A stretch of 64,000 nt of DNA from Gammaproteobacteria bacterium (lineage in GTDB: Bacteria; Pseudomonadota; Gammaproteobacteria; GCA-001735895). This document shows positions 49,090 to 56,465 of the stretch, one piece after another (within the stretch, counting starts at the first letter, position 1; each line of letters begins with the position of its first letter). The notes below the pieces were generated by a model. The model searched no databases and was not told the DNA's origin. It saw only the letters and a program-made list of their open reading frames with translations. The position numbers and the translations under genes are program-made. The stretch spans positions 1 through 64,000 of the forward strand of contig JBNKUM010000115.1 of assembly GCA_050298595.1 (NCBI GenBank), read 5' to 3'.

Positions 49090-49330
49090 CGTAGCTACTG
49101 ACGAGTACGCGTGCAAGTAACTTCCTTTTACGCGAAAAGAAAGATACCAAAGAAAGCACGCCCCACAATCCCTTGATTATTTCGGGCTTCCGGCCCTCCA
49201 CCCTCCGGGCCGCACTGTGTGCGTTCAAAAATGTTCCAGACATTTTTGTCGTCAAAATAGCACTCACATCGCGGTCGGCTCAGACGCGCGTCCCACCGCG
49301 CTGAGCCTCAAATGGCATCCATGCCTTTTG
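49090..49330. repeat. REP-like multi-hairpin intergenic element
   Basis: Hairpins CAAAAATGT/ACATTTTTG, GGCTCAG..CTGAGCC and GGCATCCATGCC (49314-49325); similar to 30325-30391. Confidence 0.6.
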
Positions 49331-49547
49331 ACCCCGATCTGAACATTATTTTGCCGCGGGTTTGAAAGAGTATTTTAAAATAAAAGAGTTTCCTGGTTAC
49401 GTATAAAGCGCCATTAGCTTGGTTACTTGAAGATCCAGTAGAAAAAAGAACTAGTAATTTTAAAGATGATCTGTATTGCAGAGAATAAAAAATCACTATA
49501 AGATTTTAGCCGATGGATCAAAAACCATGTCACTTTAGCACTGACTC

Positions 49548-51935: not shown

Positions 51936-54900
51936 ATGTCAGGGACAAAAAAATTTCTAATAATAGCCTTTTATTCATTGCTTTTAGTGGGCTGTGGTGG
52001 TGGCTCTTCTAACACTGATGATAGTTTCTCACATAGCTCATTCGAGTTTTCATTTAATGGCACTAATTCCAAAGCGGTTCTGGATAAGGAGAACGCCTCT
52101 AACTTCCTTGCTTCAATTTTTTTAAGTGGTTTTATCCTGACGGAAGATTCCCTCGCAACTTCTAGCAGTGCACACTCAGATGTATCATCCTATCTAGCGC
52201 CTGGAAACTTTACTGGATTAAAGTTGGATAAAACTCGCTATGCTTCCAGGGGTGGTAGCATTTCAAACAAAATAATTGATACTGAGGACCATTCTTGCAA
52301 TTCCAGCGGACATTACAGTATCAAGTACTTCAGTAGTTCTACAACAGAATACCAAATGAGGATAGAGTACGTTAACTGTATTGAAGGAATGACAGGTGAA
52401 TTAAATGGAATAATCAATATCTCCTATGTACATGAATTATACGATGGACAGCCAGCCTATTATCCCAGTTCAGGGAAGATGACTTACTCGAATTTTTCAG
52501 TAAATACTGGTGTAAACAGGATTGAGGTAACTGGAAGTGTAGATATGACATTCCTGAACTATTGTCCCCAGGTGTATGTACATAACTTAATTATTCGTAA
52601 CACTTCAACGTTGGAACAAACCAGATATGAGAATCTTACGACTAATGTCTCATGTAATAATCAATACACCATGGAAGGTAGAATTTACAGTTCCAACTTT
52701 GGGTATATAGATGTCAGTACTCAGAAACCACTTGAATATTCACGAGATAACCAGCTTATATTTCCTGATATCGATGGAAACCTGAAGCTAAGCGGAAAAA
52801 ATTCTTTAGTCGAAGTAGATTTCAGTAGTGCATGGCATGAAAACTCAGAAACAATCACATATATCAGCCCAAATTACTATGGAGTTTTACCTACAACTAC
52901 CTTTCGTTTTGATCTAGATGGTGACCATAGTAACGATTATATTTTAAGCAGTCCAACTGAATACGCACTCCCTTTTTTCACTGGCGGAACTTTCCTTGAT
53001 TCTGATGGCGATAAAATGCTGGATATATGGGAAGACTTTTATGGGCTTGATCGGTATAACCCAGATGATGCGGATATAGATTCGGACAGTGATGGATACT
53101 CCAACTACGGAGAATATATCGGTTTTGGACATCCTCGCGATTCTCTCATTCCCCCAGAATTCAAAGGAACAGCCACCACATTTATTGAGTCAGATAATTC
53201 AGCTGATGTTAGAAAAGGGCAGGATTTGACATTAAATTTAAAGACTCAAATCAATAGTGAAAAACTACCTGGCTCATATTTTCTGAAAGTTCAAGTTTCT
53301 GAAAATGCAGAATTCATTCAACCGTCAAATGACCAATGTGCAGAATATTATTTAGAGAATTCCAAGAAAGTTTGCTTGCTGAAACTAAGTGTTGCATACA
53401 GTAACGGAACTAATGAACGTACTAGCATGTACAAACTAATCATCCAGTCATTAGATGAGACACCCATAGACTACGTGATCGAACCCGACTATGGGTACTT
53501 CAGTAATCAAAACTATGGGGAACCGGAATTATCAAGCACAATCACATTCCAGAAGCGATTGTCGGATCTAGAGTTAACTTATTTCTCTCCTACTACATCT
53601 TACAAATTTGACCACCTGACTGTCGGCCAGATTGAGCTGCGAGAAATTGAATTCGCAAACAATGGTCCAGACCAGGCTAATAACGTAGTAATTCGGGTAA
53701 CTTTCCCTCCTGAAATATCAGTAGAATCAGCATATATGACCTTTGAGCAAGCCTACCTGCGGTGGCAAGATTGTGAGGTTATGAATAACCAGGTTATATG
53801 TAGGTTGGATCAGCTTCCCAGCACAGGCTGGAACAATGAAGGGACGATACGAATCAATGAACAAGCGAACACTGATGGTCTCTCAACGGTATATGCTAAG
53901 ATCGAATCTGATTCTGTAGAGGTTACTAATGACAACAACCTGAATTCTACCGAAGTATTCCTCGGGAACTCTTTAGACACTATACAGCCTTTAATCGACC
54001 AGGCCGAACCAGGCGATACTGTTTTAATACCTCAAGGTTATTATACTGGAGGATCATTAATGGTTGATGGTAAAGCACTTCATCTTTACTCGGAAAATGG
54101 GCTCGGCTCAGTAAAAATCGGCAGATATGGAGCCTCGTTCTTAAATGAAGGAAAGATTGTGATTTTGGACCCAGAAACAGGGTCTACGATTAATGGGTTT
54201 ATCTTTATTGGCCCGGTGCTAACTATTTCGGGTACAGTAACAGTTTCAAACAATAAGTTTTATTCGAATTTTTATTCAGCTGCTGCTGACAATTCGATTG
54301 ATGATTGCTCCCCGAGCATGTTTCAAATAAACCCTACCCTGAATTCAGTAATTGAAAAAAATTACTTTGATTGTACTTTAATAGAAGCCCATGAATATGA
54401 TTGGTATGATGGACATACTGATTTAACTATTCGAAACAACATATTCAATACTAACCCTAATACTGGGACTTCCTTGGACACATCGGCTTTCATTTATTTT
54501 ACAGGCGTTGGTATGTATAACACGGAAAAAAACGGCGTCGTTAATATCATTAACAATACGTTTCTTAATTCTGACAACCCAGCTTTATTCACTATTCCTG
54601 GAGCGAATATGGGGAACATATCTGAGATTAAGAATAATATTTTTTATAATGTTGCAAAACCGATAGTCCATACTGGATCATATGAAACAGAGTTTTCAAT
54701 AGAGGGGAACATCTTCGGAGCTTATAACGAAATATTACCTAACTTGCCACCTTCTAATCTATTCGGAGATCCTCAAATAGATCCGGTCAGTTTCTATCCT
54801 CTTCAGAATTCTATAGTCATTGACAGCGGAGTATCTATTTCGGGATTGATCTCAGATTATCTTGGGAATATCAGGCCACGCGATGGAAACAATGATGGAA

Positions 54901-54938
54901 ACCCTGAAATTGACATTGGTGCGATCGAACTACAATAA
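51936..54938 (+). CDS. Large surface lipoprotein (Ca-binding Asp repeats, DUF11-like Ig domain, beta-helix, choice-of-anchor Q-like tail)
   Basis: Lipobox LVGC-GGG; DSDGDKMLDIWE..DSDSDGYSN; NNGPDQANNVVI; Asn-rich repeats; C-terminus DYLGNIRPRDGNNDG..DIGAIE. Confidence 0.82.
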   Translation: MSGTKKFLIIAFYSLLLVGCGGGSSNTDDSFSHSSFEFSFNGTNSKAVLDKENASNFLASIFLSGFILTEDSLATSSSAHSDVSSYLAPGNFTGLKLDKTRYASRGGSISNKIIDTEDHSCNSSGHYSIKYFSSSTTEYQMRIEYVNCIEGMTGELNGIINISYVHELYDGQPAYYPSSGKMTYSNFSVNTGVNRIEVTGSVDMTFLNYCPQVYVHNLIIRNTSTLEQTRYENLTTNVSCNNQYTMEGRIYSSNFGYIDVSTQKPLEYSRDNQLIFPDIDGNLKLSGKNSLVEVDFSSAWHENSETITYISPNYYGVLPTTTFRFDLDGDHSNDYILSSPTEYALPFFTGGTFLDSDGDKMLDIWEDFYGLDRYNPDDADIDSDSDGYSNYGEYIGFGHPRDSLIPPEFKGTATTFIESDNSADVRKGQDLTLNLKTQINSEKLPGSYFLKVQVSENAEFIQPSNDQCAEYYLENSKKVCLLKLSVAYSNGTNERTSMYKLIIQSLDETPIDYVIEPDYGYFSNQNYGEPELSSTITFQKRLSDLELTYFSPTTSYKFDHLTVGQIELREIEFANNGPDQANNVVIRVTFPPEISVESAYMTFEQAYLRWQDCEVMNNQVICRLDQLPSTGWNNEGTIRINEQANTDGLSTVYAKIESDSVEVTNDNNLNSTEVFLGNSLDTIQPLIDQAEPGDTVLIPQGYYTGGSLMVDGKALHLYSENGLGSVKIGRYGASFLNEGKIVILDPETGSTINGFIFIGPVLTISGTVTVSNNKFYSNFYSAAADNSIDDCSPSMFQINPTLNSVIEKNYFDCTLIEAHEYDWYDGHTDLTIRNNIFNTNPNTGTSLDTSAFIYFTGVGMYNTEKNGVVNIINNTFLNSDNPALFTIPGANMGNISEIKNNIFYNVAKPIVHTGSYETEFSIEGNIFGAYNEILPNLPPSNLFGDPQIDPVSFYPLQNSIVIDSGVSISGLISDYLGNIRPRDGNNDGNPEIDIGAIELQ

Positions 54939-55057
54939 GTAGTCGACCCTGAAAAATACTACAACCTATTGATAATATTGAATAAACTTGTGAAAACAGG
55001 TGATTAAAACGACCAGGAAAAGTAAAATAAGTCCTTAAACACTATACAAGGGACCTT

Positions 55058-56259
55058 GGAGCACCTGGCAAATCGATTCGTTTAATGGTTGGTTTATTAC
55101 TTTTAAAACAACTGGAAAACTTAAGTGATGAAGAAGCTGTCGTGCAGTGGAAACGTAATCCCTACTACCAGTCGTTTTGTGGCATGACAGAGTATCGGCC
55201 CAAAATACCCTGCGATAGTACCGGACTGGTTCATTTCAGAAAGCGCATAGGCAAACAGGGTGTTGAAAAAATATTCCAGATGAGTGTTGCTCTGCATGGA
55301 AGAGCTGCCCTGGAAAATAACGTCAACATCGATACGACTGTACACGACTGCAAGGATGCAGGAGGTAGAGCGAAGCAGGAAGCCAGAGCCGAGGAAAAAA
55401 ACATCACCTATCCAACGGACGCCAAATTGGCGATCAAGATCGTCAATCGTTTAAACAAGCTGGCTAAATTTCATGGTAATCAGCAAAGGCGAACCTTCGT
55501 TAAAGAAGTCAAAAATCTACGTCTGTCGATCCGTCATTTCCGTCATGTTAAAAAAAGAGCAAAAGCGAAAAAAGCACTGAAGCGTTTAAGAACCATTGCC
55601 CATATTCTCATGCGTGAATTGAGAAGAAAACTACCTCAACCCTGTCTTTTTGAATGCCACCAAAAAGACTTTTTATTTTATGAACAGGTACTGGCACAAC
55701 AACCCAAAGACAAAAACAAAATTTACTCGTTACACGAGCCACAGGCATACTGTATCGCCAAAGGCAAAGATCACAAGCAGTATGAATATGGCAATAAAGT
55801 CTCTATTGCCAGCACCGCTAAAGGTAACATCATAGTAGGTGCTGTCAGTCATGAATTGAATTTGCATGATAGTCATACTTTGCCGACGTGTTAAACCACA
55901 TCGAAGCCTCACGAGGTAAGGCAGTCAAGACAGCGATCTGCGACCGAGGTTACCGAGGTAAGAGCCGGGTCAATGACACCGTCATCCAGCTACCGAAAAA
56001 GCCACTGAAAAGGGATAATCGTTACCAGCGGGACAAGAAAAGAAAGCAATGCAGGCGGCGGGCCGCTATTGAGCCGATCATCGGTCATTTGAAGAGTGAT
56101 TTTCGGTTATCCAGAAACTTTCTCAAAGGCACTGCTGGAGATGAAATAAATCTGCTGATGGCCGCAACTGCCTGGAACCTGAGAAAATGGCTAACAGCCT
56201 TTTTTTGGCCATTATTTTTGTGGCTAAAAATCAGATTTAACACCGTGTGTAGCAATTGA
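55058..56259 (+). pseudogene. IS5-family DDE transposase pseudogene
   Basis: IRLMVGLLLLKQLENLSDE, IDTTV..EKNITYPTD, KIYSLHEP, DRGYRG, RAAIEPIIGHLK; N-terminus deleted, frameshift near 55888. Confidence 0.9.
55345..55392. repeat. 48-bp REP-like in-frame insertion within the transposase
   Basis: Removing CGACTGCAAGGATGCAGGAGGTAGAGCGAAGCAGGAAGCCAGAGCCGA restores GTA CAG GAA AAA, giving the family motif DTTVQEKN. Confidence 0.85.
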
Positions 56260-56465
56260 GCGCAGAGGCAGCCGGATATTTTGAATATATCTAATCACCT
56301 TGAGAGTTAAAATTTACTCATAATACCTTTTCAGGAACGAGTAAGTATTTATTGAAACTGACTATGCGAAAAGCATATTAAGAGGGAGTGAAATCAACAA
56401 ACACTTTTTTTATATATTTCTATCTATGTACAGCATAAGACTAAATTAAAACCGTAACAAAATTA

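Follow-up and report, generated by a model that had tools for sequence, protein, structure and literature searches.

The 64,000-nucleotide stretch analysed here (the window; positions 1 to 64,000 of contig JBNKUM010000115.1 in the Gammaproteobacteria bacterium assembly GCA_050298595.1) carries a damaged insertion sequence (IS) of the IS5 family, whose transposase gene is interrupted in frame by a 48-nucleotide unit. This unit belongs to a family of short dispersed repeats and is very probably a mobile element. Across the insert the window reads GAT ACG ACT GTA C|ACGACTGCAAGGATGCAGGAGGTAGAGCGAAGCAGGAAGCCAGAGCCG|AG GAA AAA AAC, and its translation reads DTTV-HDCKDAGGRAKQEARAE-EKN. In an alignment of the window protein with 14 of its closest IS5-family homologues (the name 'IS5 family transposase' comes from the source records), all 14 have DTTV-(Q/H)EKN and an exact 16-residue gap opposite the insert, at 78-89% identity. 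A search of a large protein collection returned thousands of IS5-family transposases of 430-465 amino acids, the nearest about 84% identical. Taking out the 48 nucleotides restores the reading frame and the motif, as a first-pass annotation made from the sequence alone had proposed. The unit can be drawn as 55344-55391 (cut C^A) or equally as 55345-55392 (cut CA^G), because one A is common to its start and to the right flank; beyond that ambiguous A there is no duplication at the junction.

The same boundaries appear at the DNA level. Contigs of X5 and X6, two public runs of another study (Logan contigs), match the IS at about 98% identity, with 5 differences in 307 nucleotides and 5 in 311, and join position 55343 directly to 55392, skipping exactly 48 nucleotides with ends AC..CG. 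Together with the 14 homologues that lack the segment, these contigs bear out the proposal of a true insertion without target duplication. Both junctions are also covered by contigs of run X1 at a depth equal to that of the flanks, with the qualification that X1 may be the source sample and its support is then not independent. Depth over the unit is 25-57 times the flank depth in X1 and X3, and the X3 contigs end at the unit.

The host IS is a dead relic, with a one-nucleotide deletion, a 5' deletion of about 162 nucleotides and the lack of any other copy in the genome, where one partial relative, at 73% identity, was found. About 50-60 N-terminal codons are missing from this copy, and the aligned homologues are about 70 residues longer at the N-terminus. 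An extra G behind position 55884, present in one X3 contig and in X5 and X6, would join the two transposase frames, and the population therefore contains IS copies without this frameshift. Near-identical, less damaged copies without the unit thus exist, and the insertion is young. Because the IS is dead, neither the position just after a putative catalytic Asp, which the first-pass annotation had pointed out, nor the in-frame outcome of this copy carries functional meaning.

Table 1. Features of the window around the 48-nucleotide unit, its empty target in the window and example copies of a second host repeat
Feature	Position	Strand	Basis or remark
Micro-element, A-type unit, 48 nt	55344..55391	+	ACG-A, hairpin, GAG, then GTAGAGCGAAGCAGGAAGCCAGAGCCG; homologue gap, contig skips, family matches
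Insertion site GTAC^[unit]^AGGAA	55340..55396	+	Empty form GTACAGGAA codes V-Q-E
Hairpin CTGCA-AGGA-TGCAG, covarying core	55348..55361	+	Fold and covariation
IS5-family insertion sequence, a dead relic, host of the unit	54934..56349	+	Pfam DUF772, DDE_Tnp_1, DDE_Tnp_1_6
Probable left terminal inverted repeat of the IS	54934..54955	+	Inverted repeat I1, 22 nt, 77% complementary; overlaps stop codon of upstream ORF
Probable right terminal inverted repeat of the IS, 22 nt	56328..56349	+	Inverted repeat I1
First transposase open reading frame (ORF) fragment, 269 aa, DUF772 domain	55085..55894	+	Carries 16 extra residues HDCKDAGGRAKQEARA
Second transposase ORF fragment, 123 aa, DDE C-terminal part	55888..56259	+	Out of frame with first fragment
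Internal 5' deletion of about 162 nt in the IS copy	55037..55038	+	X5/X6 contig pieces hold about 162 extra bases
Unoccupied target hairpin GGC-ATGGAT-GCC, in class-3 repeat	49314..49325	-	GGCATCCATGCC hairpin of the first-pass annotation
Class-1 miniature inverted-repeat transposable element (MITE), example copies	C8:37220-37590, C8:74300-74680, C30:44780-45150		Dispersed repeat

A whole-genome DNA search with the IS region gave 46 matches, most of them limited to the 50 bases around the insert. The 48-mer recurs without a difference at C100:65498-65545, C56:32867-32914 and C51:26039-26086 of the same genome (100% identity, within 50-nucleotide matches). An iterated nhmmer profile (E < 0.001) found 80 matches, 52 of them full length and 39 of those 52 exactly 48 nucleotides long; 55344-55391 is its best match within the window. 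A 28-nucleotide unit pattern, allowing at most two mismatches, hits 40 places, compared with none for the reversed pattern, a control that gave no match in any genome searched. With three other identical loci and 40 hits against none, the copy number is far above chance. The segment that close transposases lack is thus present at many other loci, as one of a multi-copy family of about 80 significant matches.

Two subtypes can be told apart, A (ACGACT...AGGAGGTAG) and B (ACGCCT...AGGTG[GT]TAG). Three units stand head to tail at C8:18378-18521, and among the 80 matches neighbours less than 300 nucleotides apart lie on the same strand in 21 pairs (16 abutting or overlapping) and on opposite strands in two, 202 and 239 nucleotides apart. 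Nesting, which the first-pass annotation had raised as a possibility, does occur: an A unit splits another unit at GC^AGGA, with ...GGTAGRGCGAAGC on one side and AGGAAGCCAGAGCCG... on the other, a site that resembles GTAC^AGGAA in the IS. For 35 of the 52 full-length units the flanks are themselves multi-copy. The window copy alone (1 of 52) lies in a genuine long ORF; a 171-aa ORF across the C75 unit proved spurious, since that unit belongs to the RNA portion of a group II intron.

Variant forms of the unit were also seen. At loci L072 and L082, GGAGGTA stands two or three times between hairpin and tail, a 7-nucleotide slippage that breaks the multiple-of-three length. Some units are 72 nucleotides long because a 24-nucleotide hairpin module (GTACGAGCTCAAGGATGAGCGAAG or a variant of it) follows the first hairpin and precedes GTAG (C110:5269-5340, C67:43322-43390 and C104:15977-16046; L058, L063 and L107); the order within the module is the classical one of tag, GGA-loop hairpin and GAAG. 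A related tandem family of about 46 nucleotides (GCCTACATGGACGTAGGTAAGGAGCGTGAGCAGGAGCGGAAGCTTT; C49:237-300, C17:32153-32170, C108:837-854) has the same first hairpin and another tail. In three named gammaproteobacterial records (L059, L062 and L103) the hairpin loop of the unit is interrupted by tiny inserts of 17-54 nucleotides, one of which holds a CCGCCA-TCCT-TGGCGG hairpin. These inserts suggest a wider set of micro-elements that may enter each other's GGA loops.

The unit is built of ACG, a hairpin of 5-8 bp with an xGGA loop, and then GGTAGRGCGAAGCAGGAWGCCWGAGCCG, a conserved tail of 26-28 nucleotides; its ends, ACGAC... and ...GAGCCG, are not terminal inverted repeats. The folding energy of the window hairpin is ordinary (z = -0.86; 37 of 200 shuffles fold as well). 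Covariation was measured on 55 distinct units from many taxa: helix columns 2-9 paired with 14-21 contain 52 double-change cells against 15.6 in shuffles, a value reached by none of 500, and the covariation score is 0.320 against 0.110 in shuffles and at most 0.075 in slid controls. Both sides change in seven of the eight pairs, pair 7-16 being GC 23, AU 17 and CG 10 times, and the GGA of the loop is kept at 93-98%. The hairpin structure is therefore under selection. GTAG occupies unit positions 22-25, on the 3' side of the conserved hairpin; in the canonical unit the sequence after it is non-palindromic, and a second real hairpin after GTAG occurs only in variant units (GTAG-A-GTAAC-GCAGGAGCA-GTTAC). 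Only one hairpin is conserved, and the unit carries two further GGA motifs, CAGGAGG and CAGGAWG.

Target preference was read from 106 sites that differ in their flanks. At +1, directly after the unit, A stands in 97%, followed by G in 79% at +2, G in 53% at +3 and A in 47% at +4, and position -1 is A in just 4%. On the minus strand, 5' to 3' up to the junction, the flank reads T (47%), C (53%), C (79%) and T (97%), and well-documented sites with the final T alone exist. The register differs by subfamily, being (G)C^AGGA for A-type units (n = 67) and GG^A in 11 of 19 B-type ones. When the empty sites were rebuilt, the junction fell in a predicted hairpin loop in 55 of 106, compared with a mean of 39.8 and a maximum of 47 over 20 rounds of shuffling.

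Filled and empty forms could be matched in five hosts, namely the window IS, the class-1 MITE, the class-3 repeat, pglX and grpE, and in all five there is no target duplication and a single ambiguous A at the junction. The class-1 MITE is about 365 nucleotides long, has inverted ends of about 20 nucleotides (AACCTAGAATTCGCAGTT... / ...AACTGCGGAATCCAGGTT) and is present in 50-70 copies in the genome. Six of its copies are empty, reading TCGCGAATGCATGG^ATGCATAGG with 15-16 nucleotides between the anchors, five are exactly 48 nucleotides longer, and still others contain units nested in one another, as in a copy with +96 nucleotides. The insertion site is the loop of an internal TGCA-TGGA-TGCA hairpin, a hot spot for units.

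The hairpin that the first-pass annotation had noted at 49314 in the window is real and is a comparable target without a unit, its minus strand reading GGC^ATGGATGCC. It belongs to the class-3 repeat, which is filled at GGC^[unit]^AGGGATGCC in three copies (C21, C80 and C109) and empty in four (C101, C69, C57 and the window), one further copy being truncated. This dispersed repeat (TTCAAGCCCGCGGCAAAA...GACCGCGAT...TTTTGACGA, minus strand, 49250-49420 in the window) has about ten copies in the genome, and the loci scanned gave no Rfam match for it. The habit of parasitising other mobile elements, proposed from the window copy, thus holds for the IS, the MITE, another repeat family and a group II intron, in whose RNA part a unit lies antisense. 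That intron (C75:90300-91500; also C53:744 and C9:4577) has an intact-looking reverse transcriptase ORF, with a unit or an older diverged unit antisense in its 5' RNA part.

The proposal that the unit can add peptides to proteins holds for real genes in other bacteria, in the frame of the window copy: PglX and GrpE, both checked at the DNA level, and XseB, at the protein level only. An intact pglX, with a 1233-aa ORF annotated PglX, contains a unit at 92% identity in Escherichia coli ZF34 and ZF31 and on Salmonella and Moellerella plasmids; the unit codes DDCMDAGGRATQDAKA, and three related pglX genes are empty at the corresponding site (AATGCAG^ACAACC, compared with ZF34). In grpE two perfect tandem units (L177:760-855) lie between GCTGAAG and ATAAGGATCC; the product is 227 aa long with a full GrpE domain, and relatives at 65% identity lack the 32 residues. 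The XseB product has two copies of the peptide at its C-terminus.

GrpE and XseB came from a peptide search with the translated C8 array. A further search, with the tandem peptide, returned 28 representative proteins, mostly short unannotated ORFs that are probably translated arrays, and a Pfam domain was present in one of the six scanned (P0139, P0152, P0142, P0153, P0136 and P0137). The peptide surveys were run in one frame and so cannot show a frame bias; the two in-frame cases found through DNA, the IS and pglX, share one frame. Intragenic copies are rare relative to non-coding ones. In ZF34, pglX also lacks 30 nucleotides (10 codons) just upstream of the unit, between TGTTC/CGTTC direct repeats (L173:3990-4000 versus L174-L176), and this region of PglX appears to tolerate length change.

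By the 28-nucleotide pattern the unit is present in 8 of 13 congeners, with 0-49 copies each, in one of seven genomes of the sister genus, in 22 of 400 genomes sampled across the class (22 of 321 genera, counting its own) and in one of 113 sampled outside the class. An exact 26-mer occurs at 120 or more loci (at least) in named genomes. Among the matches listed, 79 of 80 are gammaproteobacterial and the remaining one is a Flavobacteriales metagenome-assembled genome; the carriers listed include Pseudomonas, Shewanella, Marinobacterium, Sedimenticola, Thiohalomonas, Endozoicomonas, Pseudoalteromonas and a tubeworm symbiont, among others. Named Gammaproteobacteria have 1-13 copies, and five large-contig genomes 4-13. 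Outside the genome studied here it is the same 48-nucleotide unit, often in the arm or loop of a local palindrome, patchy in its spread and near-identical in sequence across gammaproteobacterial families and orders. A phage collection gave no match.

The units enter precisely and without duplication, prefer A(GG) targets, lie frequently in hairpin loops, nest in one another at a site in the unit tail and form tandem arrays. An explanation that we regard as plausible, though evenly balanced between being right and wrong, is that the 48 bases in the window are one copy of a non-autonomous micro-transposon moved in trans as single-stranded DNA. An enzyme encoded elsewhere, probably one of the HUH/Y1 group, would cut the unit out and paste it, and a single-stranded intermediate is proposed because the unit is so small and has a single subterminal hairpin. 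On the minus strand the element would lie 3' of (T)(C)CT and end in GT. Head-to-tail arrays could come from rolling-circle copying of a 48-nucleotide circle, or from insertion of a new copy at the end of a resident one. In the window the unit entered an IS5-family element; in other bacteria it has lengthened the products of functional genes by 16 or 32 hydrophilic residues, in the same frame. Because its size, single subterminal hairpin, loop targets and minus-strand CT flank fit, HUH chemistry in general is a reasonable inference rather than a result, and one that we hold tentatively. TnpA(REP) works on folded single-stranded repetitive extragenic palindromic (REP) sequences and cleaves at a CT dinucleotide, according to PMC8266576.

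Several observations weigh against movement of this kind. No mobilising enzyme was identified: in this genome only one of 26 Y1_Tnp matches has a unit within 3 kb, in five other carriers (G041-G045) only one of 24 lies within about 2 kb of a unit, and Y1 genes occur equally in congeners without units (G002 and G007). No unit in this genome is split by coding cargo, and so no autonomous partner was found there. The unit has a single conserved hairpin with GTAG 3' of it, whereas both ends of IS200/IS605 elements carry a hairpin. Neither an excision product nor a circle nor a fresh insertion was directly seen, and the 4-13 copies of closed or large-contig carriers are too few for an analysis of replication-strand bias, the copy-rich genomes being drafts of 119 and about 550 contigs. 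The hairpin-loop enrichment is moderate, with flank extraction imprecise for units that have extra modules, and many sites are nested or related, so that the flank statistics are not fully independent. Past the A the target is loose, as at TGG^ATGCA in the MITE, CAG^ACAACC in pglX and GGCT^AAAGC in Pseudomonas palindromes. Two candidates were set aside along the way: one apparent split unit is a truncated MITE, and a degraded Y1 fragment 217 nucleotides from the C21 unit gave no lead.

The first-pass annotation had named a REP-associated tyrosine transposase (RAYT) as the enzyme, and the unit would then be a REP in the strict sense, mobilised by its cognate RAYT (TnpA-REP). The unit is indeed a short hairpin repeat containing GTAG, with variants that have a second hairpin after it; the minus-strand left flank ends in CT at most sites, CT being the TnpA-REP cleavage dinucleotide in the part of PMC8266576 that treats cleavage; and Y1_Tnp genes are present in every carrier examined, five of five in each of two sets. 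The Y1_Tnp counts given above, however, leave no REPtron arrangement, and neither distance nor presence and absence gives any signal of a link between Y1/RAYT genes and units. The canonical GTAG stands 3' of the conserved hairpin with no palindrome after it, and the 21 same-strand pairs against two include no inverted doublets. The unit is near-identical across orders, whereas REP types pair with particular TnpA-REP groups, as far as the relevant portion of PMC8266576 goes. These results count against RAYT mobilisation, and we consider both a classical REP-flanked RAYT as the mobilising enzyme and a strict-sense REP as the nature of the unit unlikely. Stronger statements on vertical co-divergence of REPs and TnpA-REP also exist as general background. 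Apart from the named enzyme, the first-pass reading was largely right.

Somewhat less likely again is that no dedicated enzyme is involved, and that units spread by template switching or microhomology-mediated repair between GGA hairpin loops and form arrays by slippage. To the right of the junction the targets do show AGGA-type microhomology with the unit (AGGAA in the IS, AGGAAGCC at nested sites). Deletions between short direct repeats have occurred in arrays, with losses of 12 and 15 nucleotides in the MITE copies on C101 and C85, and GGAGGTA slippage of seven nucleotides is seen at L072 and L082. Yet the left boundary has no microhomology and falls on the same base in independent hosts, and 39 of 52 units are exactly 48 nucleotides long. 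Full units with the same ends also sit at sites without AGG (the MITE, pglX and the Pseudomonas palindromes), and the covariation of the hairpin demonstrates selection on structure.

With a similarly low probability, the unit may be kept for an RNA role, as a portable module for a protein that binds GGA loops, such as CsrA/RsmA, its mobility being secondary; this is compatible with transposition in trans. Its GGA loop on covarying stems, the two further GGA motifs, targets that are themselves GGA-loop hairpins and a near confinement to one class of bacteria would all suit such a role, and GGA in a hairpin loop is given as the CsrA motif in the abstract of PMC4894983. In Rfam, however, neither the unit nor its arrays nor the class-2 host matched any family, CsrB and Rsm families included, whether at the gathering threshold or with E relaxed to 10; the one group II intron match, some 1.2 kb away from the C8 array, has nothing to do with the unit. 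In its group II intron host the unit also runs antisense to the intron RNA, G:T and A:C mismatches number 8 and 7 and so show no strand preference, and GGA-loop hairpins are only slightly enriched genome-wide (108 versus about 93 per 10^4 occurrences). Finally, loss of an ancestral segment from relatives, or an assembly chimera at a repeat, is very improbable: repeats do break assemblies, as where the X3 contigs end at the unit, but 14 of 14 homologues lack the segment, the 48-mer stands in dozens of unrelated contexts, X1 contigs span both junctions at flank depth (subject to the caution on X1 above), and precisely this 48-nucleotide stretch is missing from an allele of about 98% identity.

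Among known systems the unit is closest to REPs, bacterial interspersed mosaic elements (BIMEs) and REPINs, which it resembles as a many-copy short hairpin repeat with a covarying stem and GTAG, without target duplication, mostly outside genes, presumably a single-stranded substrate, and with CT at the presumed cleavage site on one strand (PMC8266576). In REPs and REPINs, GTAG lies immediately 5' of the palindrome in the description available from PMC8266576, whereas in the unit it lies 3' of the hairpin. The palindrome makes up just 14-20 of the 48 nucleotides, units are head to tail or nested, with neither inverted doublets nor a flanking RAYT, and the sequence is near-identical across many gammaproteobacterial families at low copy number. 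Intragenic REPs and Rickettsia palindromic elements (RPEs) have been described before (parts of PMC3733652 and PMC10969869), and like RPEs and intragenic REP or enterobacterial repetitive intergenic consensus (ERIC) sequences the unit is a selfish repeat that can lie in frame in genes and add a peptide (same sources, in part). It differs from RPEs in being 48 rather than about 150 nucleotides long, as RPEs were first reported, in occurring in free-living Gammaproteobacteria and in enterobacterial bacteriophage exclusion (BREX) islands, and in the rarity of its intragenic copies (1 of 52 in this genome). An in-frame selfish repeat is thus not new in kind, and the unit joins the REP and RPE kind.

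With IS200/IS605 elements such as IS608 and ISDra2, single-strand 'peel and paste' transposons that insert 3' of a specific tetra- or pentanucleotide on the active strand, the unit shares the lack of inverted termini and of target duplication, a subterminal hairpin and, tentatively, insertion 3' of a short preferred motif on one strand. Hairpin-foot sequence and target register vary together by subfamily, recalling the pairing of guide and cleavage site in the pertinent part of PMC8266576. Unlike those elements it has no transposase gene inside or beside it, a single hairpin, a size more than ten times smaller and a loose target motif. MITEs are likewise non-autonomous, short, multi-copy and sometimes intragenic; the unit differs from them in lacking terminal inverted repeats and target-site duplication, and itself sits in a true MITE of about 365 nucleotides. 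GGA in hairpin loops is the motif of CsrA, and CsrB, RsmY and RsmZ resemble the unit in their GGA in short hairpin loops and single-stranded CAGGA-type motifs, its arrays looking like a string of such sites. Units, however, have no Rfam match and are dispersed, mobile, on both strands and inside genes and repeats. A full-text literature search with six 15-mers of the unit, on both strands, found no paper containing them; no printed description of the unit was found, and the literature that was found concerns REPs, RPEs, MITEs and CsrA in general only.

A bolder picture, which we offer as speculation with little probability, is that of a class-wide 48-nucleotide micro-transposon moving as a single-stranded circle, targeting exposed GGA hairpin loops and mobilised by an enzyme other than a classical REP-flanked RAYT. 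With every jump it would bring in a fresh GGA-loop hairpin and two additional GGA motifs, and so seed CsrA/RsmA-type sites in transcripts and a 16-residue hydrophilic peptide in proteins; the IS elements, MITEs, group II introns and defence islands it invades would carry it from one bacterium to another. If the mobility model were true, the unit would be among the smallest discrete mobile DNA units in bacteria, and its exact ends and five empty-site hosts would make the movement of REP-like singlets directly testable with a 48-nucleotide substrate that can be synthesised. The unit crosses genus and order boundaries, probably as a passenger of other mobile elements and of a BREX island that E. 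coli, Salmonella and Moellerella have in common. It is also a clean case of proteins with housekeeping or defence roles (GrpE and PglX) that have gained a fixed peptide from selfish DNA. For annotation, it accounts for puzzling inserts of 16 or 32 residues and for many spurious small ORFs reading DxxDAGGRAKQDARA.

The ORF upstream of the IS (51936-54938) codes for 1000 aa; its N-terminus looks like that of a lipoprotein, and it matches DUF11 only weakly, below the cut-off. Its stop codon lies inside the probable left inverted repeat of the IS, which may therefore have replaced the original 3' end of the gene.

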